From Burkholderiales bacterium (GTDB lineage: Bacteria > Pseudomonadota > Gammaproteobacteria > Burkholderiales > WYBJ01), in NCBI GenBank assembly GCA_044360365.1, contig JBIKKL010000001.1:3531-67530 (forward strand): a stretch of DNA of 64,000 bases, given 5' to 3'. The notes beneath the pieces are model-generated. The model was not told the DNA's origin. It did not search any database and saw nothing but the letters and a program-made list of their open reading frames with translations. The translations under genes and the position numbers were made by a program. This document shows positions 6,595 to 60,810 of this stretch, in pieces. The stretch's first letter is position 1; each line of letters opens with the position of its first letter.

Positions 6595-7721
6595 CTATCC
6601 GCCGGCCGCCCGCGGCAGTGATGCGCGCAACGCGAGCGCGTCGCGCAGGGTGGCATCCACGGTGGTACCGAGCACCGTGAAATGACCCATCTTGCGTCCC
6701 TGCCTTGCATCGCGCTTGCCGTACAGGTGCAGCTTCGCCCCCGGATGTTCGAGGAGCTTTTCCCACTGCGGCTCGCCGCCCGCCCAGGATTCCCCGAGGA
6801 GATTCACCATGACCGACGGTCCGTGGATTGCGGTCGATCCCAACGGCAAGCGGGCCATGATGCGCGCCTGCTGCTCGAACTGCGACGTGATGCAGGCATC
6901 GATCGTGTAGTGGCCGCTATTGTGCGGACGCGGTGCGATCTCGTTGGCCAGCAGCGTGCCACCCACGACGAAGAACTCCACGCACATCACGCCCACGTAG
7001 CCCAGCTGCTCGGCAACCGCGCGGGTGGCCTCCTGCGCCTGCATCGCGAGCGTAGGGGCGATCCGGCCGGGGACGATCGACACATCGAGGATGCCGTTCG
7101 CGTGCATGTTTTCAGCGACGGGATAAGCGACGCATGCACCGGTATCCGAGCGCGCAACGACGACCGACACCTCGCAGTCGAAGGCAAGCATGCGCTCCAG
7201 GACGCACGGTTCGCCGCCCATCGCAATAAAGGCAGAGCGCGCCTGTTCGATATCGGCAACCCGCGCCTGCCCCTTGCCGTCGTAGCCGAACCGGCTTCGC
7301 TTCAGGATGCCGGGCAGCAACGATGTGTCGACATTGGAAAAATCCTGCTCGCTTCGAATCACGGCGTAAGGCCCGACGCCGACCACACCCGCCAGGAAGG
7401 CCTTTTCGCGGATCCGATCCTGCGCCACCGCAACACTGTCGGCGCCCGGGGTCACGAAGCAATCGCGGGCAAGACGGCGCAAGGCATCGGCCGGCACATT
7501 TTCGAATTCGGTCGTCACTGCTGCGCACTGGGCCGCCAGCCGACTCAATGCTGCGTCATCGAGATAGTCGGCCCGGATGCAGGCATCCGCGACATCGCCC
7601 GCCGGACTGTGGTCGCCTGGATCCACCACCAACACGCGATAACCCATGCTCTGGGCAGCCATGCTGAACATTCGTCCGAGCTGCCCGCCACCGAGCAGCC
7701 CCAGCCATGCACCGGGCGCGA

Positions 7722-7725
<4 letters not shown>
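6595..7725 (-). CDS. purK: N5-carboxyaminoimidazole ribonucleotide synthase
   Basis: [20 protein letters not shown] is an ATP-grasp N-terminus. The ATG at 7725 forms an ATGA overlap with the purE stop. The 571-aa track ORF is an artefactual 5' extension running through purE. Confidence 0.95.
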
Positions 7726-8216
<491 letters not shown>

Positions 8217-8246
8217 GCTGCGAATTCCCTGCGTCGTCAAAACTCG

Positions 8247-8252
8247 ATTCTA
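8247..8252 (-). promoter_or_regulatory. Possible -10 element (TAGAAT on the minus strand) for the purEKC operon
   Basis: The plus strand reads ATTCTA. TTTTCG lies 17 nt upstream as a weak -35. Confidence 0.3.
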
Positions 8253-8452
8253 ATCGAACGGGCACAGCCCGAAAATTTGATCGCCCTTCGATGCCGCCAC
8301 CTCGGTGCAATGCGCATTGCCGAGAGTGCGTGTTACGATCGACGCGCGTCGACGCCGATGCAGGTCAGCAGCGGCGTGCGTACCGGAACGAAACCGACGC
8401 CCCACATCTCTCCCGCTCGATTGTTCGTAGCTCACACACCAGGAGGAACACC

Positions 8453-9223
8453 ATGGCCGACCCCGGCATGCACAAAGGCGACGAGTTCGCCGGCAAAGTT
8501 GCACTCGTTACCGGCGCTGCCCGCAACATCGGACGCGCAGTGGCACTGTCGCTCGCTTCAGGCGGCGCCAAGGTCGCTGTCTGCACTCGCGCCGACATGG
8601 ACCAGGCCCGCTCCGTGGTCGAGGAAGTCAAGGCGCTCGGCAGCGATGCCGCCGCGTTCAGTGCCGATCTCGCCGATCCGGTCGCGACCCGCAAGATGGT
8701 CGAAGACGCCATCGCCCGCTTCGGCCGCCTGGACATCCTCGTGCTCAATGCAGCGATTCGCGAGCACGATAGTTTCGAGAACCTCACCTACGAAGACTGG
8801 CGGCGTGTCCTCGCCACCGATCTAGACAGCGTCTTCGTCGCGACGTCGGCCGCACTGCCGGCGCTGAAGAAGGCCGGGGACGGCGTGATCGTGACCTTCG
8901 CCGGCGTCACCGCACTGCTCGGCGCGAAGGGCCGCCCGCACGTTGCAGCAGCCAAACACGGCATCGTCGGACTGACCAAGGCCCTCGCCCAGGATCTCTC
9001 CGACTACGGCATCCGCGTCAACTGCGTCTCGCCGGGGCAGATCGATACATCGCGCAAGGCCGGCACCGAACGCCCCTCGCGCGTGACCGACATCCCGCTC
9101 GGCCGCAAGGGCACGTCTTTCGAAGTCGCAGCCATGGTGCGACAGCTCTGCGGGCCGGCCGGCGGTTACATGACCGGGCAGACGATCCACATCAACGGTG
9201 GCCTGTCGAACTCGGGCGTTTGA
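8453..9223 (+). CDS. SDR-family oxidoreductase
   Basis: VALVTGAARNIGRAVA (Rossmann TGxxxxxG), NAA, and a catalytic-region AAKHG (Y replaced in the YxxxK context). AGGAGG lies 6 nt upstream of the ATG at 8453. Confidence 0.85.
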   Translation: MADPGMHKGDEFAGKVALVTGAARNIGRAVALSLASGGAKVAVCTRADMDQARSVVEEVKALGSDAAAFSADLADPVATRKMVEDAIARFGRLDILVLNAAIREHDSFENLTYEDWRRVLATDLDSVFVATSAALPALKKAGDGVIVTFAGVTALLGAKGRPHVAAAKHGIVGLTKALAQDLSDYGIRVNCVSPGQIDTSRKAGTERPSRVTDIPLGRKGTSFEVAAMVRQLCGPAGGYMTGQTIHINGGLSNSGV

Positions 9224-9366
9224 CGTCGCAGGCACTGCGCCGCAGGCAGTCGAGGGCGTCCTTCGGGGCGCCCTTTTCATTCCATCGAGGGCCGACGATC
9301 GGAAAGCCGATCGGTTCCCCCATGCTAAGATTCGACGCAACCCACGTCGTCCAGTCCCGAACTTCC

Positions 9367-11445
9367 ATGACCGATTCCAAGTTCGCGCGCGCCCTGCTCG
9401 CGCCACAGTCTGTCGCGCTCGTCGGCGCCTCCGCAGACATCAAGAAGAACACCGCACGCCCGCAACGATACCTGCGCGAGCACGGCTACACCGGCGCGAT
9501 CGTGCCGATCAACAATACTGCCGCCGAATGCCTGGGCGAGAAGGCCTATCCCTCGCTCGACGACGCACCTGACGGCATCGAACACGCGCTGATCATGGTG
9601 CCCGGCAAGTACGTGCTCGGTGTCATCGAGCAATGCGTACGCAAGAAGATTCCGATGGCCTCGATCTACAGCGACGGCTTTGCGGAAACCGGCGACGAGG
9701 GCCGCAAGCTGCAGGAGCAGCTTGTCGCGGTTGCCCGTGCAGGCGGCATGCGCCTCACGGGGCCGAACTGCATGGGCGTGATCAACACCCATATGCCGTG
9801 TGCCCTGTCCATCAACGCCGTGCTCGACATCGACCAGCTCATCAAGGGCCGCGTCGGGCTGGTCTCGCAAAGCGGCAGCGTCATGGGCGCGCTGCTCTCG
9901 CGCGGGCAGGCGCGTGGCGTCGGCTTCTCGAAGCTCGTCTCGGTCGGCAACGAATGCGATCTGTCCGTAGGCGAAATCGTGGACATCCTGGTCGACGATG
10001 CCGATACCGACGTGATCCTCATGTTCCTCGAAACGATACGAAAGCCCGAGCTGCTGGCACAGGCCGCGCTGCGTGCGCATCAGGCCGGCAAGCCGATCGT
10101 CGTGTACAAGCTCGGCCGCTCCGAAGTCGCACGCGAACTCGCTGCATCGCATACGGGGGCCATGACCGGCTCGGACGACAGCGCCAACGCCTTCTTTCGT
10201 CGCTACGGCATCATGCGCGTCGATACGCTAGAAGCGATGATCGAAGCGCCGCAGTTTCTCCTGCGCGCGAAGCCGCCGAAGGGCCGCCGCATCGCCGTGC
10301 TCACGACGACCGGCGGCGGTGCAGCGACGGTCGTGGACAACATGGGGCGGCTGGGACTCGACGTCGTCCCGCCGACGGACCAGGTCATCGAGAACCTTGC
10401 TGCGAAGAACATCCACATCCACAAGGCAGCACTCACCGACCTCACGATGGCCGGCACGCGCAAGGAGATCTATAGCGCCGTGCTCGACGAACTGCTGCGC
10501 TCGGATCACTGCGATGCCATCCTGGCCGTCGTCGGCTCGTCGAGCCAATTCCATCCGCAGCACGCGGTGGAGCCCATCGTCGAGGCGATGCCCACGCGCA
10601 AGCCGCTCGTGACGTTCCTCGTTCCCGATGCCGTGCGCTCGCTGGAACTGCTGCATGAAGCCGGCGTCGCAGCCTTCCGAACACCGGAGTCCTGTGCCGA
10701 TGCACTGGCTGCCTATTTCAACTGGCAGATCCCCGCCGCATTACCCAAAGGCGACGAGCGCACCGCCGCAGCTTCGGCCCTGCTCGCCGCAGCCACCGGG
10801 AAACAGCTGAACGAGCATGCAGCCTGCAACGTCTTCTCAGCCCTCGGCGTGCCGATCGCCCGTACACAGGTCATCTCAACGGCAGACGAGAAGGTCGACA
10901 TTCGCTTCCCGGTCGTGGCCAAGATCCTCTCGCCCGATATCCTGCACAAGACCGAAGCCGGTGGCGTCGAGTTGAACATCGCGGATGCCGGCGCGCTGCG
11001 CGGCGCCGCGAACCGCATCCTGGAGCGCGTTGCCGCCGCTCGTCCCGGTGCCCGCATCGAGGGCATCCTCGTGCAGGAAATGAAGCAGGGGCGAGGCGAA
11101 GTGATCCTCGGCTACAAGCGTGATCCCCAGGTCGGCCCGGTCGTGGTTCTGGGCGTGGGTGGGACGCTTGCCGAGATCTATCGCGACTTTTGTGTGCGCA
11201 TCGCCCCCGTCTCGGTGGAAGAAGCGCACGCAATGATCGAACAGGTGAAGGGCCTCGCATTGCTGCGCGGCTACCGCGGCCAACCCAAGGGCGACCTGGA
11301 TGCGCTGGCACACACGGTGGCTGCCTTCTCGAACCTCGCGGTACTTTCCGAGCACGACATCGCCGAAGCCGAGATCAACCCGCTCATCGTCGCGGGCGAA
11401 GGGGAAGGCGTCGCCGCAGTGGACGGCCTGATCGTATTCTCATAA
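9367..11445 (+). CDS. ADP-forming acyl-CoA synthetase (acetate--CoA ligase family; CoA-binding + ATP-grasp)
   Basis: PQSVALVGAS...ARP is a CoA-binding N-terminus. The middle is succinyl-CoA-synthetase-like (GPNCMGV, SQSGS), and the C-terminus is ATP-grasp (FPVVAKILSPDILHKTEAGGV). The start is chosen at MTDSKF. Confidence 0.85.
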   Translation: MTDSKFARALLAPQSVALVGASADIKKNTARPQRYLREHGYTGAIVPINNTAAECLGEKAYPSLDDAPDGIEHALIMVPGKYVLGVIEQCVRKKIPMASIYSDGFAETGDEGRKLQEQLVAVARAGGMRLTGPNCMGVINTHMPCALSINAVLDIDQLIKGRVGLVSQSGSVMGALLSRGQARGVGFSKLVSVGNECDLSVGEIVDILVDDADTDVILMFLETIRKPELLAQAALRAHQAGKPIVVYKLGRSEVARELAASHTGAMTGSDDSANAFFRRYGIMRVDTLEAMIEAPQFLLRAKPPKGRRIAVLTTTGGGAATVVDNMGRLGLDVVPPTDQVIENLAAKNIHIHKAALTDLTMAGTRKEIYSAVLDELLRSDHCDAILAVVGSSSQFHPQHAVEPIVEAMPTRKPLVTFLVPDAVRSLELLHEAGVAAFRTPESCADALAAYFNWQIPAALPKGDERTAAASALLAAATGKQLNEHAACNVFSALGVPIARTQVISTADEKVDIRFPVVAKILSPDILHKTEAGGVELNIADAGALRGAANRILERVAAARPGARIEGILVQEMKQGRGEVILGYKRDPQVGPVVVLGVGGTLAEIYRDFCVRIAPVSVEEAHAMIEQVKGLALLRGYRGQPKGDLDALAHTVAAFSNLAVLSEHDIAEAEINPLIVAGEGEGVAAVDGLIVFS

Positions 11446-44912: not shown

Positions 44913-46928
44913 CTACTCCCCGCGACCCGCAAACCCCAGGGTCTTTTCGAGGCGTCGATCGAGTTTCAGGTTGTCGTTGCGGATGCGGGCGTTGCGCCGC
45001 TCGGCGGCCGCCTGCGATGCCGCCTGAACGAGCCGCAACAGCCACGGGGATGCGCGCAATGCCAGGCCCGCGTTGGCGGCGAAACGCGTGAGCCACGGCG
45101 AATTGGTGCGGAAGAGTTCATCCTCCAGCGACACGAGCATGACGCAACTGCCCGGATCCCCCTGGCGGGCGCAGCGACCGTAGAGCTGACGATCGATCCG
45201 CGCAGACTCGTGGCATTCGGTGAGGATGACGTGCAACCCGCCGCGCGCGGACACTTCGCTCGAGATCTTGATGTCCGTGCCGCGCCCGGCCATGTTCGTC
45301 GCCACGGTAACGGCGCCCGGCAGTCCAGCCCTCGCCACGATCTCGGCCTCCTCGCGATCCTGCTTGGCATTGAGCAGCAGGTGTTCGATTCCACGCTGGG
45401 CAAGCACCGCGGACAAGGCCTCGGATGCCTGGACCGAACGTGTTCCGATGAGCACCGGGCGTCGCTGCTCGATCGCGCAGCGCTGCGCCTCGTCGGCCAC
45501 CGCCTCCCACTTCTGCGCCGCCGTCGACAACAGCCTGCCTCGCCGAAAGCCGCGCCGGCTGGGTCGGTTGAGCGGCACCTTCACGACACCCAGTCGGAAG
45601 ATGGACCAGATTTCAGGCGCGACCTCCATCCCGGTGCCCGTCATGCCAGCGAGGCGCAGGTAGCGTCGGAAGAGGCGCTGATAGGTGATGCGCGCAAGCG
45701 TCTCGCGCCGCGCAGTGATCTCGACGCCCTCCTTGGTCTCGATCATCTGATGCAGCCCGCGCTCCCACGAGCGATCGGCCATGATGCGGCCGGTGAACTC
45801 GTCGACGATCTGCACCTTCCCCTCCGCGACGACATAGTGCTGATCGAGGAGGAAGAGATGGATCGCCGACAGCGCCTGTCGCAAGAGTTCTTCCCGGGTG
45901 CGCTTGGAGGTCCAGACGCCTTCCTGCTGCTCGCTCCACTCGTCGAGCCAGCGCTTGCCCGACTCGCGCAGCTCGACATAGCGCTCGCGCCGATCGATCA
46001 CGTAATGATCGCCTTCGATCATGGATCGTGCGAGCGTGAGTGCCTGCTCGCACATCTGGCCCTCCTTCTCGTCCTCACGCGACGCCGAGAGGATGAGCGG
46101 GGTGCGTGCTTCGTCGATGAACACGCTATCGGCCTCGTCGACGATGGCGAAGTGCAGCCCGCGCAGCACCACGCGATCGGCGATGCTGCGCCCGTCGCGC
46201 AAGCGCGCAAGCGCGATGTGCGCCGCACTTCCCGAGCTGCCCAGCGCAACACGATCGCGCAGGTAATCGAAGGCGACATCCTTGTTGGTGCAATAGGTCA
46301 CGTCGCAGGCGTACGCGGCGCGGCGCAGATCCGGCGCCATCTCCTGCGTCACTACGCCGACCGTGAGCCCGAGAAAACGGTAGATCGGCCCCATCGATTC
46401 GGCGTCGCGAGCCGCGAGATATTCGTTGACCGTGATGACATGCACCGGTACGCCCGCCAACGCGGCCGTGGCCGCCGGGAGTGTGGCCGTCAATGTCTTG
46501 CCCTCGCCCGTCTCCATCTCGACGAGCCGTCCCTCCAGAATGCCCCAGCCGCCCATCAGCTGCACGTCGAAATGCCGCTGACCTACGGTGCGTCCGCCGA
46601 CCTCCCGCAACAATGCGAATACTTCGCCAACCACCGGCAGATCGAAGCCGTCGCGCCGGAGCCGCCGCCGCAGATCGACCCCCAGCTCGCGCAGGCGGGC
46701 ATCGGAGATCGTACGCAATGCCGCCTCGTGCGCGGCAGCGTACGGGACGATCCGTTGCAGCCGCCGCGCCGGATTGGCGAACGTCCGAACGGCAGGCTGG
46801 AGCACGCGACTCGTCAACCAGTCGGCAATGTGATCATGCCACTTGGGTTCGTGCTCCACGCGCTCGGGATAGGCTCGCGTCGCCGACAGCTCGGCATCGG
46901 CATGCAGCACGGCAGCACTAGCCCGCAC
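44913..46928 (-). CDS. SecA-like ATPase lacking the C-terminal translocation domains
   Basis: SecA NBD1 is colinear: RHFDVQLMGGWGILEGRLVEMETGEGKTLTATLPA, VITVNEYLAARDA, VDEADSVFIDEARTPLILS. A shortened PPXD follows, then NBD2 with TNMAGRGTDIK and DRQLYGRCARQGDPGS. The protein stops about 60 aa later. The GTG start has GGAG 6 nt upstream. Confidence 0.85.
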   Translation of the reverse strand: MRASAAVLHADAELSATRAYPERVEHEPKWHDHIADWLTSRVLQPAVRTFANPARRLQRIVPYAAAHEAALRTISDARLRELGVDLRRRLRRDGFDLPVVGEVFALLREVGGRTVGQRHFDVQLMGGWGILEGRLVEMETGEGKTLTATLPAATAALAGVPVHVITVNEYLAARDAESMGPIYRFLGLTVGVVTQEMAPDLRRAAYACDVTYCTNKDVAFDYLRDRVALGSSGSAAHIALARLRDGRSIADRVVLRGLHFAIVDEADSVFIDEARTPLILSASREDEKEGQMCEQALTLARSMIEGDHYVIDRRERYVELRESGKRWLDEWSEQQEGVWTSKRTREELLRQALSAIHLFLLDQHYVVAEGKVQIVDEFTGRIMADRSWERGLHQMIETKEGVEITARRETLARITYQRLFRRYLRLAGMTGTGMEVAPEIWSIFRLGVVKVPLNRPSRRGFRRGRLLSTAAQKWEAVADEAQRCAIEQRRPVLIGTRSVQASEALSAVLAQRGIEHLLLNAKQDREEAEIVARAGLPGAVTVATNMAGRGTDIKISSEVSARGGLHVILTECHESARIDRQLYGRCARQGDPGSCVMLVSLEDELFRTNSPWLTRFAANAGLALRASPWLLRLVQAASQAAAERRNARIRNDNLKLDRRLEKTLGFAGRGE

Positions 46929-46995
46929 GCGGGTCGCTCCGAAGCAGCAAGTGCACAGGCGTCACGGTCATCCCAGCCCTCGCAGAATGCGCCGC

Positions 46996-49140
46996 TCAGA
47001 CATTGAATCGGGTCAGGAACAAGCGCCGCAAACCGCGATACCACTGCGTCCCGAGCGGTTCGGGCACGTGGTCGAAACGGACGTAGACCCGACCGCCGTA
47101 GAGGACCGTTGCAGGCGCATCGAGTTCGATCTCGAGCTGGAATACGCGCTGCATCGTCTTCGTGCCCTTGGGATCCCGCGGGTCGATGGGCACGGTACCG
47201 CCGCCCTCCGTCGACAAGGCCTTGCTGGGCAGTTCCTCGTTGCCGCCGGGAACCTGACGCACGATGCGCGCCTTGACGACATGCTCGACACGAGCGGCGG
47301 TCCGGATCTCGACTTCGTTCGTCGCCAGCCGTACGACGTCGACTTCGGCCTGCTGCACGATCACGCGCGCCCGCGGCTGCGCCGGCTCGATGACGTAGCC
47401 CACCATCTCGCCCTTGCGGAAATACCGTCCCGGCAGATCCGCCGGGTGCGGCACGGTGAACACGCCGGCCGACCGGCTACGGGCGATGAGATCGGCGCCA
47501 CGATCGACGGCGCGCTGCAGCGCGGCCAGCTCGCGGTCGAGCGCCTCCTGGGTGATCTGCGCCTGTACCCGGTCCGTGATGAAGTGATGGGCGAACTGTG
47601 CATCGAGTTCAGCCACCTTCGCCTGCGCCACCCGGATCTCGGCATCGAGCACCGGATCGATGCTCTCGATCAGGGCTTCGTCGGGCTGCACCCGGGACCC
47701 GGGTTCGACCAGATAGCGCGTGAGAAATCCATTGGCGCGGGCGCGGACCATCTGCTGCTCCGGCAGCCAGATCACGCCTTCGGTCTGGGTACGAAACGGG
47801 ACCGGCACCCAGAGAACGAATGCGACCGTGACCGCCAGTGCACCGAAACACACGCCTGCCACTCGCCGCCGATGCCGCGCCAGACGCGGACTGGTCGCCA
47901 GGTGATGCACTGTCTTGGACACGGGCACGACCGCCATGGCGATCACCGCCCAGATCGCGAGCACCACGCCGATCACGAAAAACTCGCCGGCGATGAACAG
48001 GATGATCGCGACGACGACGACGATGCGATACAGGAACGACCCGATGCCATAGAAGACGAACCACGCCTTCTCGCCCGGTGTCCCTTCGGGCTCTTCGATC
48101 TCGCGCGCTCCGAACAGGTGGCGCTCGAAAAGAAAGCCGAGGTAACGCATCGAGCGCGTCGCGAGGTTCGGAATCTCGATCAGGTCCGACAGAATGTAAT
48201 AGGCGTCGTAGCGCAGCAGCGGATTGCCATTGAACAACAGGGTGGACACCCCGGCGATCAGCATGACGTTGAAGGCCACGGCCCGCACCGTGCCCGGCTC
48301 GGCCAGCATCCAGACGAAGAACGCGATGGCCGCGAGCATCAACTCGATCATCATGCCGGCGGCGCCGACGACAGCGCGCTCGTATTTGGATTTGAAGAGC
48401 GCCGAACTGGTCGCGTCGACGTAGGGCACCGGCATGAGCACGAGCAGCATCAGGCCCATGTCGTGCACTTCACCGCCGCCGGCCTTCGCAGCGATCCCGT
48501 GCCCCAGTTCGTGAAACGCCTTCAGGAGCGGAAACAGCAGCCAGATCATCAACAGGTTGTCGACGGCGAAGACCCGATCGGCCACGCCGTGCGTGAGCTC
48601 GTCCCAGTGCGGGGGCACGAGCAGCAGCGCCGGAACCACGATGGCCAGCCAGACGAGCATGCCCTTCCAGCCCCAGAACGGCCGCACGAAGGGCAGCATC
48701 CGTTCGAGCAGTCGGTCGGGATCGATCAGGGGCACCTTGATCGCCATCGGATTGCCGATGGCCCGCTTGACTCGCGCCCGGTCCTGGCGCTGCGCGCGGT
48801 CGAAGAGTTCGGCCACGTCAGGCGACACGTCGCACTGAAGCAGGTCGGACGAGTGCAGCTGGCCCAGCAGATGAATCAGTTCGTCCTGACTCGGCGCCGA
48901 CTCGCCCAGGCGCTTGTTCGCCATTTCCCACAGTGCACCGACGCTGCGCTCGCCGTCCATGCCGTTCATGATGAGCCGGGCCGCAGGCGTGAATCGATGC
49001 GCGCGCCCCGACGCGGGATCCTGCAGGACGAACCAGACCTGGCCGCGGTAGCGATGTCGCTGCATGCGCGCATGCGTGCGCATGCGAGGCTTCAACTCGC
49101 TGACCCGATACCACGAAGCGCTCAGCAGCGGGCCGGTCAT
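46996..49140 (-). CDS. Site-2-protease-type zinc metalloprotease (peptidase M50-like) with an N-terminal PqqD/RRE-like region and a C-terminal HlyD-like periplasmic domain
   Basis: HELGH at nt 48499-48513 and a second motif NGNPLLRYDAYY (NxxPxxxxD). There are multiple TM helices, and the C-terminus combines a barrel-sandwich with a coiled coil (IRVAQAKVAELDAQ...). An alternative GTG start lies at 49209. Confidence 0.8.
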   Translation of the reverse strand: MTGPLLSASWYRVSELKPRMRTHARMQRHRYRGQVWFVLQDPASGRAHRFTPAARLIMNGMDGERSVGALWEMANKRLGESAPSQDELIHLLGQLHSSDLLQCDVSPDVAELFDRAQRQDRARVKRAIGNPMAIKVPLIDPDRLLERMLPFVRPFWGWKGMLVWLAIVVPALLLVPPHWDELTHGVADRVFAVDNLLMIWLLFPLLKAFHELGHGIAAKAGGGEVHDMGLMLLVLMPVPYVDATSSALFKSKYERAVVGAAGMMIELMLAAIAFFVWMLAEPGTVRAVAFNVMLIAGVSTLLFNGNPLLRYDAYYILSDLIEIPNLATRSMRYLGFLFERHLFGAREIEEPEGTPGEKAWFVFYGIGSFLYRIVVVVAIILFIAGEFFVIGVVLAIWAVIAMAVVPVSKTVHHLATSPRLARHRRRVAGVCFGALAVTVAFVLWVPVPFRTQTEGVIWLPEQQMVRARANGFLTRYLVEPGSRVQPDEALIESIDPVLDAEIRVAQAKVAELDAQFAHHFITDRVQAQITQEALDRELAALQRAVDRGADLIARSRSAGVFTVPHPADLPGRYFRKGEMVGYVIEPAQPRARVIVQQAEVDVVRLATNEVEIRTAARVEHVVKARIVRQVPGGNEELPSKALSTEGGGTVPIDPRDPKGTKTMQRVFQLEIELDAPATVLYGGRVYVRFDHVPEPLGTQWYRGLRRLFLTRFNV

Positions 49141-49216
49141 TGCTCGCGACAGCGCAGACGGCGGGTCGACGCGACCTTGGCGGAACCCGCGCACGCCAGG
49201 GCATGGCACACGACCA

Positions 49217-51112
49217 TCACGGCATCCAGCTCCAGAATGCGAGGCGCACCCAGTCGATGAGCTTGTGCGTCCAGATCCAGATCAGGCGCCGCTCGCCGAT
49301 GGCAACCTTGCCGACGCCTTCCATGCCGGGTCGCAGCCTTTCGCTGACAACTGCCATCTTCGCTTCGACACGGAAGTAGTTGCGGCCCTCGTCTGCCGTC
49401 GACACCGGTGTAATGCGCGCAACGGTAAAGGGCTGCCGCGCTCCCGGAATCCCGGACAGGACGAGTTCGCCCTCCTGCCCGACGGCGAGATACGTGATGT
49501 CGCGCTCGTCCACTTTCAGTATCACGCGATAGGCATCGAGCGGCGCAATCTCGAACAACACCTTGCCTTGCTCCACGGGCGTGCCGAGGAGCTGGCTCAG
49601 ATCACCGCTGACGACGATGCCGTCGAACGGTGCGCTGATGCGCGAGCGGGCGAGCTTCTCGTTGATCAGCTGCAGCTGGGCCTCGGCCTGATTGACCTGA
49701 GCACCGACGACGTTCATCGTCGGCCGATCACGAGTCGCGAGCGCCTGGCGGTACTTGCGCAGGTGCTGCTCGCGTTCCGCTTCCCAGCGGGTACGCTCCA
49801 GCAGCAGCTCCTTGTCATCGAGTCGCGCGAGCAGCGCCCCGGCTTTCACGACATCGCCTGCCCGCACGAGACTTTCAGCAATGTAGCCCTCGAAGGGCGC
49901 GACGGCTGCGCGCTGGACCTCGCCCTCCACGACGGTCTTGGCCGCCACACGATGCTCGCCATCGGCAAGACTCAAGAACAACAGCACGCCCAGCACGACC
50001 GCGGCGATCAGCTTCCAGCCGGGGTGCCGCGGCCCGAAGAAGGCACGCGTCCCGGCGACGAGCCCATCCCACGCACGACGCGGTATGCCGCGCTCGTTGT
50101 CCCGCTTCAGATCGAGGACCGGCCCAAGGAGCAACCCCAGCGTTCGCACCAGTTCGAGCGTTGGCACATCGAAGACCGCGCCACGCGTGCGTTCGAGCAT
50201 CAGGACGCCCCAATCCTCGCCGTGTGCATTCAGGGGCGTGGATACGATGGCGATGTCGCCCGCTTCCTGGGCCAGCGCCAGGTGCGAAGCACCGCTCAGC
50301 GCTTCGTCTCCGGGGGCGGGAAACACGAAGGTCGCCCCGAGATCCAGTGCTTCGTCCATGGCATCGCCGAGGCGACGCGCGAGACTGGACTTCGGATCGA
50401 ACATGGCCGTGTGCGAGATCGCGAGCACGCGGCATTCGCCATGCTTGTCCATGCCGATGCTGACGCGCTCGCATTCCAGGCGCCGAGCGATATCGTTTGC
50501 TATGGCGAGCGCCGCCGCCCTGAAGCGCTTTTCCTGAACAGCCGTTGCGACCAGCTCCGTCGCCAGCGCCAGCCGGTCGATGGCGGCCTGGCGCTGCTCG
50601 AACTCGCGCTGGCGGAAAAGATCGACCAGCCAGGCCGCCCCCCAGTGGATGAGACGCAAGGCGCGCTGCAGATCGCGACTGGCCCGGGGCGCGAGATCGA
50701 GCACCACGGCGCCATGCAGGGCGCCCGCCACTTCGATGGGATAGGCGACTTTCGCGCCGCGCAGCTCCCGAGATTCGCCCGCGTCTTCGCCCGTATCGAC
50801 CACGCCCTGCCGCTCGGTCAACGCTCGTTGGGCAGTGGGGGCAAGATGGGTCATGTCCCGACTGACGTCGGGCCAAATGGCCCCCGGGACGTAGGTATTC
50901 TCGGTATCCGAGCGGATCAGGAGCAGCGCGCCGAGCACCTGTTCGACTTGCGCGCAGAGGATGGCAAGCCAGCTCGCGTAAAACTGATCGACCGAGTTTG
51001 CCGCAACGAAGGTGCTCCAGGTCGACGCGTCGGCGTCGCCTGCGAGGTCCTGTGCGCCGGGGGCGGCACGCGCGTCCTCGAGGGTGCGCTCGATTTCCGT
51101 GGTCGATGACAT
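49217..51112 (-). CDS. GAF-GAF-TM-HlyD family membrane-fusion (periplasmic adaptor) protein
   Basis: Two GAF-like blocks in the N-terminal ~335 aa are followed by the TM helix WKLIAAVVLGVLLFLSLA. A HlyD-type lipoyl/coiled-coil/beta-barrel region comes next (VEGEVQRAAVAPFEGYI...RISAPFDGIV...). Confidence 0.8.
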   Translation of the reverse strand: MSSTTEIERTLEDARAAPGAQDLAGDADASTWSTFVAANSVDQFYASWLAILCAQVEQVLGALLLIRSDTENTYVPGAIWPDVSRDMTHLAPTAQRALTERQGVVDTGEDAGESRELRGAKVAYPIEVAGALHGAVVLDLAPRASRDLQRALRLIHWGAAWLVDLFRQREFEQRQAAIDRLALATELVATAVQEKRFRAAALAIANDIARRLECERVSIGMDKHGECRVLAISHTAMFDPKSSLARRLGDAMDEALDLGATFVFPAPGDEALSGASHLALAQEAGDIAIVSTPLNAHGEDWGVLMLERTRGAVFDVPTLELVRTLGLLLGPVLDLKRDNERGIPRRAWDGLVAGTRAFFGPRHPGWKLIAAVVLGVLLFLSLADGEHRVAAKTVVEGEVQRAAVAPFEGYIAESLVRAGDVVKAGALLARLDDKELLLERTRWEAEREQHLRKYRQALATRDRPTMNVVGAQVNQAEAQLQLINEKLARSRISAPFDGIVVSGDLSQLLGTPVEQGKVLFEIAPLDAYRVILKVDERDITYLAVGQEGELVLSGIPGARQPFTVARITPVSTADEGRNYFRVEAKMAVVSERLRPGMEGVGKVAIGERRLIWIWTHKLIDWVRLAFWSWMP

Positions 51113-56478: not shown

Positions 56479-58257
56479 GTGACTTCGCTTTCCAATCGAC
56501 CCGGGCCACACCCCCGCAATCACCTGCGACCGCTCGCCGCCGTCGCACTCCTGGTTATCGGCCTCAACGTGCAGGCGCAAGTCGCCCGACCGTCCCAGCC
56601 CGAGCCCGCCAGCGGACGCACCGAAAACGCGCTGGCCCACGGCCGGGAATACATGGTCGCCGCGGCCCATCCGCTGGCGGTGGAAGCAGGCTTGAAGATG
56701 CTCGAGCGCGGCGGCACCGCTGTGGACGCTGCGATCGCCACGCAACTCGTGTTGAACCTGGTCGAGCCTCAGGCCTCCGGCTTGGGCGGCGGCGCCTTCC
56801 TCATGCATTTCGATGCGACCAGCGCGACGACGCGTGCCTATGACGGTCGCGAAACGGCCCCGGCAGGCGTAGACGAGAGGCTCTTCCTCAAACCCGACGG
56901 CAAGCCCATGGCGTTTCCCGACGCGGTTGCCGGCGGACGCTCGGTCGGCGTGCCGGGACTCGCTCGCCTGCTCGGCCTCGCCCACCGCGATCACGGCAAA
57001 CTTCCCTGGGCCACGCTGTTCGGCCCTGCCATCGAACTGGCGGAATCCGGCTACCCGCTCACGCCGCGCGTCCATCATCTGCTCGGGCGCGCAGCCGGGC
57101 TCGCTGCCGACCCCGCCGCCCGCGCCCTGTTCTTCGACGACGCAGGACAACCCAAACCCGCAGGCACGCTGCTCACGAACCCTGCCTTCGCGGCGACGCT
57201 TCGGGCGCTCGCACGCGATGGCGCAGACGCCTTCTATCGCGGCGACATTGCCAAGCGCGTCGTTGCTGCGGTACGGGACCACCCGGTCAATCCCGGCACG
57301 CTGAGCGAGGAAGACCTCGACCGCTACGCCGTCCGCGAAGTGACGCCGCTGTGCGGCCCCTACCGCAGCTATCGGATCTGCGGCATGCCGCCCTCGTCAT
57401 CCGGGGGCATTGCCGTGCTGCAGATGCTCGGCGTGCTGTCGCACTTCGACATGGCCGACGTGCGCCCGGTCTCGGCCCAGGCGGCGCACCTGCTCTCGGA
57501 AGTCGCGCGCCTCGCCTTTGCCGATCGCAATCGCTACGTCGCCGACGACCGCTTCGTGACCGTGCCGGTCACGGGGCTCCTCGACCCGGCGTACATCGAG
57601 TCGCGCGCACGCCTGATCCGGCTCGAGCGATCCATGGGCAAAGCGCAGCCGGGCACCCCGCAAGGCGTGACGACGGCGCACGCGGACGACCGCTACGACG
57701 AAGCCAGCGGCACGAGTCACATCGCGATCGTCGATCGCAACGGCAACGCCGTATCGATGACGACCACGATCGAATCGTTCTTCGGCGCACGCATCATGGC
57801 TGGCGGCTTCCTGCTGAACAACCAGCTGACGGACTTCAGCTTCGTGCCCGAGCAGGGGGGGCTGCCCGTCGCAAATCGCGTCCAGCCCGGAAAGCGGCCG
57901 CGCAGTTCCATGGCCCCCACTCTGGTCTTCGACAACTCCGGCAAACTGCACATGGTGGTCGGCTCGCCGGGCGGTAGCCTCATCATCGCCTATGTCGTCA
58001 AAGCGCTGGTCGGCACGCTGGACTGGAAGCTCGACATCCAGGCTGCCATCGATCTGCCCAACATGACGAGCCGCAACGACGCCACCGAGATCGAGGCCGG
58101 CACCGAAGCGGAGACGCTGCAGGCCGCCCTCGTCGCGATGGAGCACGTCGTTCGGCGCATCGACATGACCAGCGGCATCCACGGCATCGCACGAACTCGG
58201 GAGGGTTGGACCGGCGGCGCCGATCCGCGACGTGAGGGCATTGCGAAGGGCCGATAG
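56479..58257 (+). CDS. ggt: Gamma-glutamyltransferase
   Basis: A signal peptide (LAAVALLVIGLNVQAQ), then GGTAVDAAIA and GLGGGAF. The nucleophile Thr lies in GTSHIAIVD, and GSPGGS follows. The GTG start at 56479 is chosen; the 901-aa track ORF is a spurious 5' extension. Confidence 0.9.
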   Translation: MTSLSNRPGPHPRNHLRPLAAVALLVIGLNVQAQVARPSQPEPASGRTENALAHGREYMVAAAHPLAVEAGLKMLERGGTAVDAAIATQLVLNLVEPQASGLGGGAFLMHFDATSATTRAYDGRETAPAGVDERLFLKPDGKPMAFPDAVAGGRSVGVPGLARLLGLAHRDHGKLPWATLFGPAIELAESGYPLTPRVHHLLGRAAGLAADPAARALFFDDAGQPKPAGTLLTNPAFAATLRALARDGADAFYRGDIAKRVVAAVRDHPVNPGTLSEEDLDRYAVREVTPLCGPYRSYRICGMPPSSSGGIAVLQMLGVLSHFDMADVRPVSAQAAHLLSEVARLAFADRNRYVADDRFVTVPVTGLLDPAYIESRARLIRLERSMGKAQPGTPQGVTTAHADDRYDEASGTSHIAIVDRNGNAVSMTTTIESFFGARIMAGGFLLNNQLTDFSFVPEQGGLPVANRVQPGKRPRSSMAPTLVFDNSGKLHMVVGSPGGSLIIAYVVKALVGTLDWKLDIQAAIDLPNMTSRNDATEIEAGTEAETLQAALVAMEHVVRRIDMTSGIHGIARTREGWTGGADPRREGIAKGR

Positions 58258-58347
58258 GCGGGCGGTCCTTTCAGCGCCGTCCTGCAATAGTTTGCCTGCA
58301 TAATGACGACGGGGCGAACTACACGTCATCCACCCAGGGAGATAGCC

Positions 58348-58875
58348 ATGGTCAAGAAGATCGCCGGCGTTTTCGCCGCACTTGCTGGAACCGTCCTCGT
58401 CCTGGCCATCATGCAGCCGGACAGCTTCACCGTTCAGCGCTCGACCGACATCCAGGCCCCGCCCGAGAAGATATTCCCCTTCGTCGACGATTTCGCACGG
58501 TGGCAGGCGTGGTCGCCGTGGGACAGCAAGGATCCCGCCATGACACGGACGATCAGCACGCCGAGCGCCGGCAGGGCGGCCACCTATGCCTGGGAAGGCA
58601 ACGATGACGTTGGCAAGGGCCGGATGACCATCGTCGAATCGACCCCGCCGAGCCGTGTTGCCATCAAGCTCGACTTCACCGCCCCCTTCGAGGCCCACAA
58701 CGACGTTGCCTTCACGATGGAACCGAAAGGTGCAAGCACGCAGGTGACCTGGACGATGCAGGGCCCGATGCCCTTCGTCAGCAAACTCATCGGCGTGTTC
58801 GTCAGCATGGACACCATGGTGGGCAAGGATTTCGAAACCGGCCTTGCGAACCTCAAGGCCGCGGCGGAGAAATAG
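58348..58875 (+). CDS. SRPBCC (START/polyketide-cyclase-like) family protein
   Basis: An N-terminal hydrophobic segment is followed by F.V.RS..I.APPEKIFPFV.DF..W..WSPW, typical of this family. AGGGAG SD. Confidence 0.78.
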   Translation: MVKKIAGVFAALAGTVLVLAIMQPDSFTVQRSTDIQAPPEKIFPFVDDFARWQAWSPWDSKDPAMTRTISTPSAGRAATYAWEGNDDVGKGRMTIVESTPPSRVAIKLDFTAPFEAHNDVAFTMEPKGASTQVTWTMQGPMPFVSKLIGVFVSMDTMVGKDFETGLANLKAAAEK

Positions 58876-58986
58876 CCTGCAAAGGACAAAGCGCTCGGAT
58901 CGCCACCGCCGGGCGATCGATCGACCTATACTTGCATTCGACAGCGCCTCGGTCGAGGTGCCCTCGACGGCCATCAGGAGGATGCC

Positions 58987-60171
58987 ATGAACGATCCCAT
59001 CGTCATCGTCGGTGCCGCGCGCACACCCATGGGCGGGTTTCTCGGCGATCTCGCTGCCGCCCCCGCCGCAGAACTCGGCGCTTGTGCGATACGTGCCGCT
59101 GTCGAGCGCACGGGCTTGAGCGCCGCTGCCATAGACGAAGTGATCATGGGCAACGTCCTGCCGGCCGGTCAGGGTCAGGCCCCCGCCCGTCAGGCCAGTC
59201 TCGGCGCAGGTCTGTCCGAAGCCGTCGGCTGCACCACCATCAACAAGATGTGCGGCTCGGGCATGAAGGCCGCCATGCTCGCTCACGACCTGCTGCTCGC
59301 CGGGACCAATCGCGTGATGGTCGCAGGCGGCATGGAGAGCATGTCGAACGCCCCGTACCTGCTGCCGAAAGCACGAGCCGGCATGCGTCTCGGGCACAGC
59401 GACGTGAAGGACCACATGTTTCTCGACGGGCTCGAGGATGCCTACGACAAGGGCCGACTCATGGGCAGCTTCGCCGAAGACTGCGCAGCCCACTATCGAT
59501 TCAGCCGGGAGGCGCAGGACCGCTTTGCGATCGAATCGCTGACGCGCTCGCAAGCCGCCATCCGCAACGGCAGTTTCCAGGGCGAGATCGCGCCCGTCAC
59601 GATCACGACGACCAAGGGCGACAAGACGATCCCCCAGGACGAACAGCCCCTCAAGGCCAATCTCGAGCGCATTCCGACGCTGCGACCAGCCTTCCGCAAG
59701 GATGGTACGGTGACAGCCGCAAACTCGAGTTCCATCTCCGACGGTGCCGCGGTCCTGGTCATGATGCGACTCTCCGAATCGCAGCGGCGCGGGGCTCGAC
59801 CGCTTGCGCGCATCGTCGGGCATGCGACCCACGCGCAGGCGCCGGGCTGGTTCACGACGGCACCCGTAGGCGCGATGCGCACGCTTTTCGAGAAGACGGG
59901 CTGGCGCGCCGCGGACGTGGATCTTTACGAAGTCAACGAAGCCTTCGCCGTCGTGACCATGGCCGCGATGCACGAATTGAATCTGCCGCACGACAAGGTA
60001 AACGTACACGGCGGCGCCTGCGCGCTGGGCCATCCCATCGGGGCCTCGGGCGCGCGAATCATCGTGACCCTGCTGGCCGCCCTCGACAAGTACGACCTGA
60101 AACGTGGCGTTGCCTCGCTGTGCATCGGTGGCGGCGAAGCCACGGCGATGGCGCTCGAACGCATGCACTGA
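58987..60171 (+). CDS. Acetyl-CoA C-acetyltransferase (thiolase II)
   Basis: NKMCGSGMKA (active-site Cys), NEAFA, GGACALGHPIGASGARI, and CIGGGEA. Confidence 0.95.
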   Translation: MNDPIVIVGAARTPMGGFLGDLAAAPAAELGACAIRAAVERTGLSAAAIDEVIMGNVLPAGQGQAPARQASLGAGLSEAVGCTTINKMCGSGMKAAMLAHDLLLAGTNRVMVAGGMESMSNAPYLLPKARAGMRLGHSDVKDHMFLDGLEDAYDKGRLMGSFAEDCAAHYRFSREAQDRFAIESLTRSQAAIRNGSFQGEIAPVTITTTKGDKTIPQDEQPLKANLERIPTLRPAFRKDGTVTAANSSSISDGAAVLVMMRLSESQRRGARPLARIVGHATHAQAPGWFTTAPVGAMRTLFEKTGWRAADVDLYEVNEAFAVVTMAAMHELNLPHDKVNVHGGACALGHPIGASGARIIVTLLAALDKYDLKRGVASLCIGGGEATAMALERMH

Positions 60172-60207
60172 CCCGCCCGTCGCCCTGCCCGAAGAGAAAG
60201 GTTCGCC

Positions 60208-60810
60208 ATGACGAACGCAATCGACTTCTACTTTGACTTTTCCTCGCCCTACGGGTACCTCGCGAGCACGCGCATCGATGCGCTCGGCGCGAAGTTCCAG
60301 CGTCACGTGCGCTGGCACCCCATCCTGCTCGGGGCGATCTTCAAGGTCTCCGGCGGCGCACCCCTGACGACGATTCCGTTGAAGGGCGAATACTCGATCC
60401 ACGACATGGTTCGCAGCGCACGCCTCTACGACGTGCCGTTCAGGATGCCGAGCAAGTTCCCGATTCCGACCCAGCATGCTGCACGCCTGACCCTTTGGGC
60501 GCAGCAGGCGGACGAAGCCCAGGGAAAACGCATGGCGGGCGCGCTGTACCGGGCCTACTTCGCCGACGACCGCGACATCTCGAATCCCGAGGTCTGCGCC
60601 GACATTGCGGCCGAAAGCGGTTTCGATCGCGCTGCAGCCGTCGCCGGAATGAACGCTGCCGCAGTCAAGGAGGCGCTGAAGTCCGAGGTCGAACAGGCCA
60701 TCGAACGCAAGGTGTTCGGCTCCCCATTCGTGATCGTCGACGGCGAGCCGTTCTGGGGAGCCGACCGACTCGACCAGGTCGAGCGCTGGCTGATCACCGG
60801 CGGGTGGTGA
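60208..60810 (+). CDS. 2-hydroxychromene-2-carboxylate isomerase family (DsbA-like) protein
   Basis: [16 protein letters not shown] and [19 protein letters not shown]. Confidence 0.87.

Follow-up and report, generated by a model that had tools for sequence, protein, structure and literature searches.

The 64,000-nucleotide (nt) stretch of DNA analyzed here, which is called the window throughout, derives from a Burkholderiales bacterium of the GTDB lineage WYBJ01 (GenBank assembly GCA_044360365.1, contig JBIKKL010000001.1, positions 3,531 to 67,530 of the forward strand). It carries three consecutive minus-strand open reading frames (ORFs), named g1, g2 and g3 from upstream to downstream (together, the triad), which encode a membrane-fusion-protein (MFP) adaptor, a protease-adaptor fusion and a truncated SecA-like motor. 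The genes, sized in amino acids (aa), and their recognizable parts are as follows.

49217..51112 (-): g1, a 631-aa inner-membrane adaptor with a cytoplasmic N-terminal region that includes a GAF domain, a single transmembrane (TM) helix and a periplasmic HlyD/MFP domain
50123..50506 (-): g1 GAF domain, aa 203-330 (Pfam PF01590, E=7.8e-10, 39.8 bits versus a cutoff of 22.4)
49964..50020 (-): g1 single predicted TM helix, aa 365-383 (Kyte-Doolittle window score 2.19)
49322..49906 (-): g1 periplasmic membrane-fusion domain, aa 403-597 (HlyD_D23 PF16576, E=8e-15; HlyD_3 PF13437, E=4e-19)
46996..49140 (-): g2, a 714-aa fusion of a PqqD-like RRE, an M50/site-2-protease (S2P)-type intramembrane metalloprotease and a membrane-fusion-protein domain
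48832..49113 (-): g2 RRE, a PqqD-like winged-helix peptide-binding domain, ~aa 10-103 (Pfam, family profile and AlphaFold2)
47806..48717 (-): g2 polytopic membrane domain, ~aa 142-445 (motifs and hydropathy)
48499-48513 (-): g2 HELGH, the zinc-protease motif (position 210)
48202-48231 (-): g2 NGNPLLRYDA, a zinc-ligand motif of the NxxPxxxxD type (position 304)
47068..47793 (-): g2 periplasmic membrane-fusion domain, ~aa 450-691 (alpha-hairpin 495-548, AlphaFold2 model)
44913..46928 (-): g3, a 671-aa cytoplasmic SecA-like ATPase with the first nucleotide-binding domain (NBD1), a preprotein cross-linking domain (PPXD), NBD2 and the start of the scaffold helix
45738..46058 (-): g3 PPXD, aa 291-397 (Pfam PF01043, E=5e-26)

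The spacers are 76 nt between g1 and g2 and 67 nt between g2 and g3, while phaC lies 118 nt upstream and a short-chain dehydrogenase/reductase (SDR) gene 82 nt downstream; these coordinates match exactly the gene order, spacers and gaps given in the first-pass annotation of this DNA. The alternative g2 start proposed there (GTG 49209, which would leave a 7-nt spacer) is unlikely: g2 probably starts at ATG 49140, because over 100 homologs measure 714-717 aa and start at the equivalent position. Beyond phaC lie a metallo-beta-lactamase-fold gene and an acyl-CoA dehydrogenase gene, while the other flank holds the SDR gene and genes for an enoyl-CoA hydratase, a Band 7 protein and pyruvate dehydrogenase E1; the triad sits between phaC and beta-oxidation genes. 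A scan for promoters and terminators (0 promoter-like sites; 8 terminator-like sites versus 4.8 +/- 2.0 expected) was uninformative on operon structure, and the co-transcribed look of the three-gene unit was upheld, as was its domain make-up save for one domain of g1. Within the 64-kb window there is no gene for an ATP-binding cassette (ABC), resistance-nodulation-division (RND) or major facilitator superfamily (MFS) pump, as had been claimed, nor one for TolC; no ORF is longer than 1026 aa, and neither the 118-nt upstream gap nor the 82-nt downstream gap holds a credible small ORF, which agrees with the earlier statement that no small precursor is encoded there.

The g1 product had been described as an adaptor with one TM helix, a HlyD-type domain and two GAF domains. 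One GAF domain, the helix and the HlyD-type domain were recovered, and the match of g1 to the NCBIfam model RND_mfp was below threshold; the second, N-terminal GAF domain was not confirmed, the first 170 residues giving neither a hidden Markov model (HMM) match nor internal similarity. In related loci the g1 orthologs lie directly upstream of g2.

For g2, the earlier description (i.e., an RRE, a HELGH protease of the site-2 type and a HlyD-like C-terminus) was supported by Pfam, family profile, motifs and an AlphaFold2 model. Among 13 members of the g2 family, Pfam found PqqD in eight, HlyD in three and M50 in all 13 (at E<=0.01, best 9e-8). The family profile matched the PqqD structure 3g2b over positions 16-102 (E=2.8e-5), and in the AlphaFold2 model the RRE consists of three strands followed by three helices, with a predicted local distance difference test score (pLDDT) of ~90. 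The model used was built from 136 sequences (pLDDT 92, predicted template-modelling score 0.80); one built from 13 sequences (pLDDT 55) was set aside. At least six TM segments were predicted from hydropathy, and seven residues (H209, E210, H213, N303, N305, P306 and D311), the putative zinc ligands and catalytic glutamate, are invariant across 136 diverse homologs. The structure of the site-2 protease MjS2P matched the family profile weakly (E=0.18). Two NCBIfam models of proteases that act on ribosomally synthesized and post-translationally modified peptides (RiPPs) were also hit: daptide_HExxH (NF041824; E=1.4e-44, 152.7 versus a cutoff of 300, aligned over aa 48-429) and YydH/LiaK (NF058609; E=3e-8, 33.5 versus a cutoff of 225). 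At the other end, the C-terminal third of the model was matched by Foldseek to MexA, AcrA, MacA and EmrA (E ~1e-11, target-normalized template-modelling score up to 0.61); the top 50 matches of the whole model were all adaptors, and MacA, MexA, HlyD and LipC were among many adaptor structures matched by the family profile. We therefore describe g2 as a predicted M50/S2P-type membrane protease with putative activity, fused to an adaptor.

The g3 product matches SecA_DEAD (E=6e-102), SecA_PP_bind (E=5e-26) and P-loop_SecA (E=4e-50) in Pfam, and its Walker A, DEAD and GRGTD motifs are intact. Apart from a ~50-aa N-terminal extension and a ~20-aa insert, it aligns with residues 21-594 of the 841 of Bacillus subtilis SecA; thus it has neither the wing domain nor the two-helix finger nor the C-terminal tail. 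This bears out the first-pass view of g3 as a SecA paralog without the SecY-engaging parts, the protein ending just after NBD2. Its scores fall below all NCBIfam cutoffs for SecA (PRK12904, 595.9 versus 814; TIGR00963, 591.3 versus 800) and for SecA2 (TIGR04397, 534.6 versus 1085; TIGR03714, 462.5 versus 930; TIGR04221, 443.6 versus 725).

Conservation of the triad was assessed by a degenerate-pattern scan with the g2 alignment over one genome per species, which found g2-encoding stretches in at least 593 species-representative genomes; the best 80 were kept as loci (numbered L001 onwards). These best 80 span Alpha-, Beta- and Gammaproteobacteria, Desulfobacterota, Myxococcota, Nitrospira and Omnitrophota. 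Throughout the kept loci g1-g2-g3 occur in one order and on one strand, with the genes often abutting or overlapping (e.g., L003, L005 and L024), and g3 is present with order and strand kept in 73 of the 75 loci with enough flank. The question raised earlier, whether the three genes are syntenic in other genomes, was thus answered strongly in the positive, across Proteobacteria and other phyla. An exhaustive g2 search of 1.84 billion cluster representatives yielded 4,358 clusters (50% identity) at E<=1e-30, and the family is nearly uniform in length (~715 aa). Moreover, against L001, whose three proteins are 93-95% identical to those of the window, the ratios of nonsynonymous to synonymous substitution rates (dN/dS) were 0.071 for g1, 0.048 for g2 and 0.067 for g3, compared with 0.067 for phaC and 0.053 for the enoyl-CoA hydratase gene among the flanking genes. 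At 0.05-0.07 the triad genes resemble their housekeeping neighbors and are therefore functional in the window lineage. The three genes make up the conserved core of a bacterial machine that is widespread and appears to be undescribed.

Three loci (L093 on Thalassospira marina pCSC3H3, L042 and L061) hold g1, g2 and g4, the last being a further adaptor gene described below, with TolC also in L093, and have no SecA-like gene within reach. PGAP and RefSeq names for g3 orthologs vary among "prepilin peptidase", "DEAD/DEAH box helicase", "translocase", "hypothetical protein" and "preprotein translocase subunit SecA" (for example L087 22210-24126, L091 14177-16138, L089 22129-24111 and L097 12031-14037), and those for g2 orthologs among "PqqD family peptide modification chaperone", "peptidase M50", "biotin/lipoyl-binding protein" and "hypothetical".

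Partner genes were sought by clustering the ORFs in the 10-kb flanks of the 80 loci, followed by Pfam and NCBIfam searches on representatives. The most frequent partner, g4, was present in 51 of 62 loci, usually directly after g3, and encodes a ~290-aa HlyD_D23/HlyD_3 adaptor with a signal peptide. Directly before g1, a gene for SapC (PF07277) or DUF3467 (PF11950) was found in 34 of 64 loci, and TolC was encoded in five. Further upstream, before SapC or DUF3467, a same-strand giant ORF occurs in 26 of the 49 loci whose upstream flank reaches 4 kb or more; all 26 run off the 10-kb flank and are hence longer than 2,100-2,700 aa each. The domains of these giants include RTX nonapeptide repeats, PKD, cadherin-like, Big_9, cohesin and dockerin. 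On the other hand, no HlyB-type ABC exporter was among the conserved neighbors of the 80 loci, no SecY-like gene was in the window or among these neighbors, and no conserved small ORF or modifying enzyme was found in the 80 loci. Of the travelling genes suggested earlier, an outer-membrane component (TolC) thus does accompany the triad in some genomes, while a conserved small ORF does not.

Complete giants were read from annotated replicons (plasmids and chromids, PLSDB gene tables), where the gene orders are:

Methylosinus sp. C49 pMSC49a: 8,847-aa giant, DUF3467, g1, g2, g3 (misnamed "prepilin peptidase"), g4, TolC
Pseudosulfitobacter sp. DSM 107133: g4 (divergent), 12,737-aa giant, DUF3467, g1, g2, g3
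Mesorhizobium ciceri R30: 10,518-aa giant, DUF3467, g4, g1, g2, g3
Pontibrevibacter nitratireducens: 10,603-aa giant, DUF3467, g1, g2, g3, g4
Alisedimentitalea scapharcae: 8,148-aa "calcium-binding protein", g1, g2, g3
Thalassospira marina: 4,033-aa giant, DUF3467, g1, g2, g4, TolC; no g3

The giants share a start. All five N-termini tested (Thalassospira, Pontibrevibacter, Mesorhizobium, Pseudosulfitobacter and Methylosinus) match the NCBIfam model NF012209, LEPR-XLL, at 27.7-33.9 bits (cutoff 17), and these five proteins differ in their repeat domains. The leader, which falls within the first 11-66 residues, is at first rich in Arg and Lys and then reads [FI]ExLEPR[VIL]LLSAD; it lacks a classical hydrophobic core. 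Seven further LEPR-type ORF starts were detected by regular expression, all heading ORFs that run off the locus: six adjoin clusters that had no upstream giant or that gain an additional one (L015, L044, L056, L058, L060 and L070), and the seventh heads a second ORF on the Pontibrevibacter plasmid (L095). On that plasmid a second pair of TolC and small adaptor genes (7341-9682) is followed by a long ORF from ~9749 that has a LEPR-like start (MEPRIMLDAS) and lies ~8 kb from the start of the first giant. In addition, SapC-type giants bear at their extreme C-terminus a conserved tag (IDW, ~25 aa further residues, then W-x-DF[VL]NHLG-x-EAQRNPNA-x-LR[IV]Q[IV]), which was seen within the last ~60 giant codons in L003, L004, L005, L011-L013, L015, L016, L021, L024, L025 and L074; the C-terminal 1,056 residues of the tagged L025 giant contain no Pfam domain.

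A related association has been reported in Chlorochromatium, where giants of 36,806 and 20,647 aa open with a LEPRxLL domain of 24 aa, have sapC and tolC on their flanks and are expressed together with a "recently acquired" secA, Cag_1676; that study draws no connection from these giants to an M50/SecA-like module (bioRxiv 10.64898/2026.03.19.712371). We take this sapC/tolC/secA association as an independent hint, with Cag_1676 as a candidate g3 ortholog.

The window itself presents a bare triad, an arrangement found in only 3 of 40 long-flank loci. It recurs beside phaC in relatives with g2 identities of 95% and 81%, whereas a relative at 75% identity has g1-g2-g3-DUF3467-g4 and one at 66% has DUF3467-g1-g2-g3; the nearest cargo-linked clusters have g2 ~55-60% identical. 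Candidate cargo in the window was sought as RTX or giant ORFs, as the SapC-type C-terminal tag and as the LEPR motif, all negative; the sole FEPRLML match lies inside the E2 domain of a 2-oxoacid dehydrogenase. Because the window triad is intact and under purifying selection, its lineage probably keeps the core while the cargo, a g4-type adaptor and TolC are encoded elsewhere in the genome.

Taken together, gene neighborhood and domain identity make it fairly probable that the triad is the core of an envelope-spanning, TolC-linked export and processing machine for giant surface or secreted proteins headed by a LEPR-XLL leader. The likely substrate would be a giant protein whose leader is handled by the RRE and the M50 domain, because the recurrent partners include LEPR-XLL giants. 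Whether the machine amounts to a new class of Gram-negative secretion is a bolder proposal, to which we give somewhat less than even weight: a SecY-independent SecA-like motor and an RRE-bearing protease-adaptor would replace the type I ABC transporter, the giants (4,000 to over 30,000 residues) would be the cargo and LEPR-XLL would be a cleavable N-terminal secretion leader.

The detailed order of steps is held at least as tentatively and could run as follows: i) the cargo would be a giant protein without a Sec signal, its N-terminus carrying a basic stretch and then hExLEPRxLLSAD, a motif observed in five of five giants; ii) the cytoplasmic PqqD-like RRE of g2 would dock the LEPR-XLL leader at the membrane, PqqD-type RREs being domains that bind leader peptides by strand addition; iii) SapC or DUF3467, where present, may serve as a cytoplasmic helper or chaperone; iv) g3 would spend ATP on threading the unfolded chain, having retained the preprotein clamp and lacking the SecY-inserting finger; v) the inner-membrane platform would combine the TM helix of g1 with the polytopic M50 domain of g2; vi) the invariant HExxH...D site of g2 would clip the leader; vii) the membrane-fusion domains of g1, g2 and g4 would make a periplasmic tunnel to a TolC-type channel; viii) Ca2+-dependent folding of RTX, Ig or cadherin repeats outside the cell would pull the chain through, as in type I secretion; and ix) the GAF domain of g1 may gate the machine on binding of a small ligand.

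Several observations weigh against export of giants by such a machine: i) no giant or LEPR gene lies within 10 kb in 17 of 40 long-flank loci (~40%); ii) neither tblastn (to E=10) nor motif scans nor ORF sizes reveal cargo, g4, SapC/DUF3467 or TolC in the window, which is linked to giants by orthology only, its g2 being 44-60% identical to cargo-linked copies; iii) the window g2 scores 25.8 bits against Pfam M50 (PF02163), just under the gathering cutoff of 27.2; iv) S2P-type proteases are not known to act as channels for proteins, which makes the path across the inner membrane a weak point of the model; v) the C-terminal tag is a second candidate recognition signal besides LEPR-XLL, so that recognition may occur at either end; vi) given the loci that lack g3, the SecA-like motor may be dispensable, replaceable or supplied in trans in some lineages; and vii) the finding that no type I ABC exporter is annotated ~15-25 kb upstream of the giant in five replicons, or ~18-20 kb downstream of the four widest-flank clusters, comes from PLSDB gene tables that are incomplete.

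Points iv and vi also lend something to a two-step route, in which the SecA-like ATPase hands the giant to the housekeeping SecYEG, g2 acts only as leader peptidase and receptor, and the adaptors and TolC carry out a separate step from periplasm to outside. Under this scheme no protease need act as a channel, systems without g3 are easier to explain if the housekeeping SecA substitutes, and g3 retains the PPXD and both nucleotide-binding domains, which in canonical SecA contact SecY. However, g3 has no two-helix finger, wing domain or C-terminal tail, the LEPR-XLL leader has no classical hydrophobic core, and the tight, often overlapping g2 and g3 genes suggest a physical partnership of their products. 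We regard the two-step route as unlikely.

The GAF domain of g1 and the invariant catalytic site of g2 would also suit a control device, another unlikely reading, in which the GAF adaptor and the intramembrane protease govern retention, release or quality control of giant adhesins (like LapD/LapG or regulated intramembrane proteolysis), the SecA-like protein is an unfoldase or extractor, and export proceeds via an unlinked canonical type I system. The triad in the window is unlinked to any cargo, and since the flanks taken for the 80 loci (10 kb) stop within the giant gene, an ABC exporter could lie further upstream there. Yet three membrane-fusion domains (in g1, g2 and g4) together with a cluster-encoded TolC point to a conduit rather than a regulator, and the annotations show no ABC exporter on the upstream side of five complete giant genes or on the downstream side of four annotated clusters.

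The first-pass annotation had read the genes as a peptide-processing and export system, which in the RiPP sense (the RRE binds a leader, M50 cleaves it and the adaptors export a small peptide) now appears very unlikely. The RRE and HExxH half of g2 does resemble the daptide and YydH/LiaK proteases, but both matches fall far below their cutoffs, no conserved small ORF or modifying enzyme was found in the 80 loci or in the gaps of the window, and the recurrent partners are a fourth adaptor, SapC/DUF3467, TolC and giant proteins. Least credible of all is that the window triad is a decaying, currently functionless remnant of a larger cluster that has lost cargo, g4 and DUF3467: bare triads are rare and the relatives at 75% and 66% g2 identity retain DUF3467, with or without g4, but all three ORFs are intact with every catalytic motif kept, their dN/dS equals that of phaC and enoyl-CoA hydratase, and the same bare arrangement persists in the relatives at 95% and 81%.

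The proposed export machine for LEPR-XLL giants would, by analogy, work most like type I secretion (HlyB-HlyD-TolC; LapEBC, SiiCDF), with which it shares HlyD-type adaptors, TolC in the fuller clusters and adjacent giant RTX/Ig-repeat cargo without a Sec signal peptide. In contrast to type I secretion, there is no ABC transporter, the defining feature of that system, and energy is proposed to come from a SecA-like DEAD motor; the inner-membrane part is an M50-type protease fused to an adaptor; two to three different adaptors are encoded; and the cargo has a conserved N-terminal LEPR-XLL leader, not only a C-terminal signal. SapC is a further point in common, being a known passenger of type I secretion clusters such as the sapCDEF operon of Campylobacter fetus. 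SapC has also been linked generally to type I secretion clusters (bioRxiv 10.64898/2026.03.19.712371).

Other comparisons concern single modules. The accessory Sec systems of Gram-positive bacteria (SecA2 with or without SecY2/Asp) likewise dedicate a specialized SecA paralog, encoded with accessory factors, to a few very large or unusual surface proteins; however, g3 is cut back much further than SecA2, with neither wing domain nor two-helix finger nor tail; SecY2 is absent; and in these Gram-negative hosts the partners are adaptors, TolC and a protease. The domain content of g3 is about that of E. coli SecA N68 (the DEAD motor without the C-terminal regulatory domain), an unregulated ATPase which cannot drive SecYEG translocation; N68 is a laboratory truncation, whereas g3 is natural and conserved and has its own extension and insert. 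The nearest published parallel is found in giant proteins of Omnitrophota and Actinobacteriota, which embed SecA_DEAD and preprotein-binding domains, proposed for their own export, alongside a normal SecA (West-Roberts et al., bioRxiv 10.1101/2023.11.21.568195). There too a SecA motor without scaffold and wing domains is tied to giants, but the module sits inside the giant polypeptide rather than in a free-standing 671-aa protein of an operon. Peptidase-containing ABC transporters (PCATs) and bacteriocin or RiPP exporters follow the same logic, in that a single machine recognizes the leader, removes it by proteolysis and drives export with ATP, frequently with help from a HlyD-type protein; the triad differs in having an intramembrane M50 instead of a C39 protease, recognition by a PqqD-like RRE, a SecA-like instead of an ABC ATPase, and cargo of thousands of residues. 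As for g2 alone, the HExxH...NxxPxxxxD zinc site in a polytopic membrane domain is shared with RRE-bearing RiPP proteases (daptide, YydH/LiaK) and with site-2 proteases (RseP, MjS2P), and its N-terminal peptide-binding domain aligns with the daptide model (over aa 48-429); on the other hand, g2 scores below the cutoffs of the RiPP models, carries a C-terminal 260-aa periplasmic adaptor fusion and has no RiPP precursor or modification genes beside it.

No specific model for g1, g2 or g3 exists in Pfam, NCBIfam (release 20) or PADLOC, and a full-text literature search found no description of the gene set, so the earlier statement that no characterized system has this composition held within the sources searched. 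A role in anti-phage defence was considered and rejected, PADLOC giving no match for any of the three genes. Within that literature the system joins known modules in a combination held by no described secretion system, with a function proposed from genomic context. It is an open question how bacteria get proteins of 5,000-36,000 residues past both membranes, and the triad gives a concrete, testable candidate: genes g1-g4 with or without SapC/DUF3467 and TolC, present next to genes for such giants in many phyla, LEPR-XLL as signal, the RRE as receptor, M50 as leader protease and a truncated SecA as motor. If true, this would i) constitute a new secretion-system type in which SecA motors work outside the SecYEG context; ii) show that leader recognition through an RRE, familiar from small RiPPs, also serves giant proteins; and iii) correct thousands of misleading annotations (e.g., "preprotein translocase SecA", "PqqD family chaperone", "RND adaptor" and "prepilin peptidase").

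Some minor features of these loci are recorded here. DUF3467 is usually free-standing (~105 aa), and in L042 (4858-5208 region, and ~887) it is fused into proteins of 416 and 203 aa. Its conserved "ILSPFAAKRL" helix (e.g., L084 5834-6142 and L085 5425-5733) resembles "ILFPYARECI" of E. coli SecB. A SecB-like chaperone role was not supported: hhalign against E. coli SecB gave a probability of 0.4% over 16 aligned residues, and a DUF3467 profile search of PDB sequences returned nothing relevant. A SecB-like fold for DUF3467 is thus only an idea, the profile comparison being not significant. In the window, the 1026-aa ORF at 57397-60477 (-) lacks a Pfam match and is overlapped by long ORFs on the plus strand; an antisense artefact of GC-rich sequence is more probable than a gene. 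On the Mesorhizobium ciceri plasmid (L096), a CBASS phospholipase/nucleotidyltransferase operon at 7467-9675 lies ~5 kb upstream of the 10,518-aa giant gene and is probably unrelated island content.

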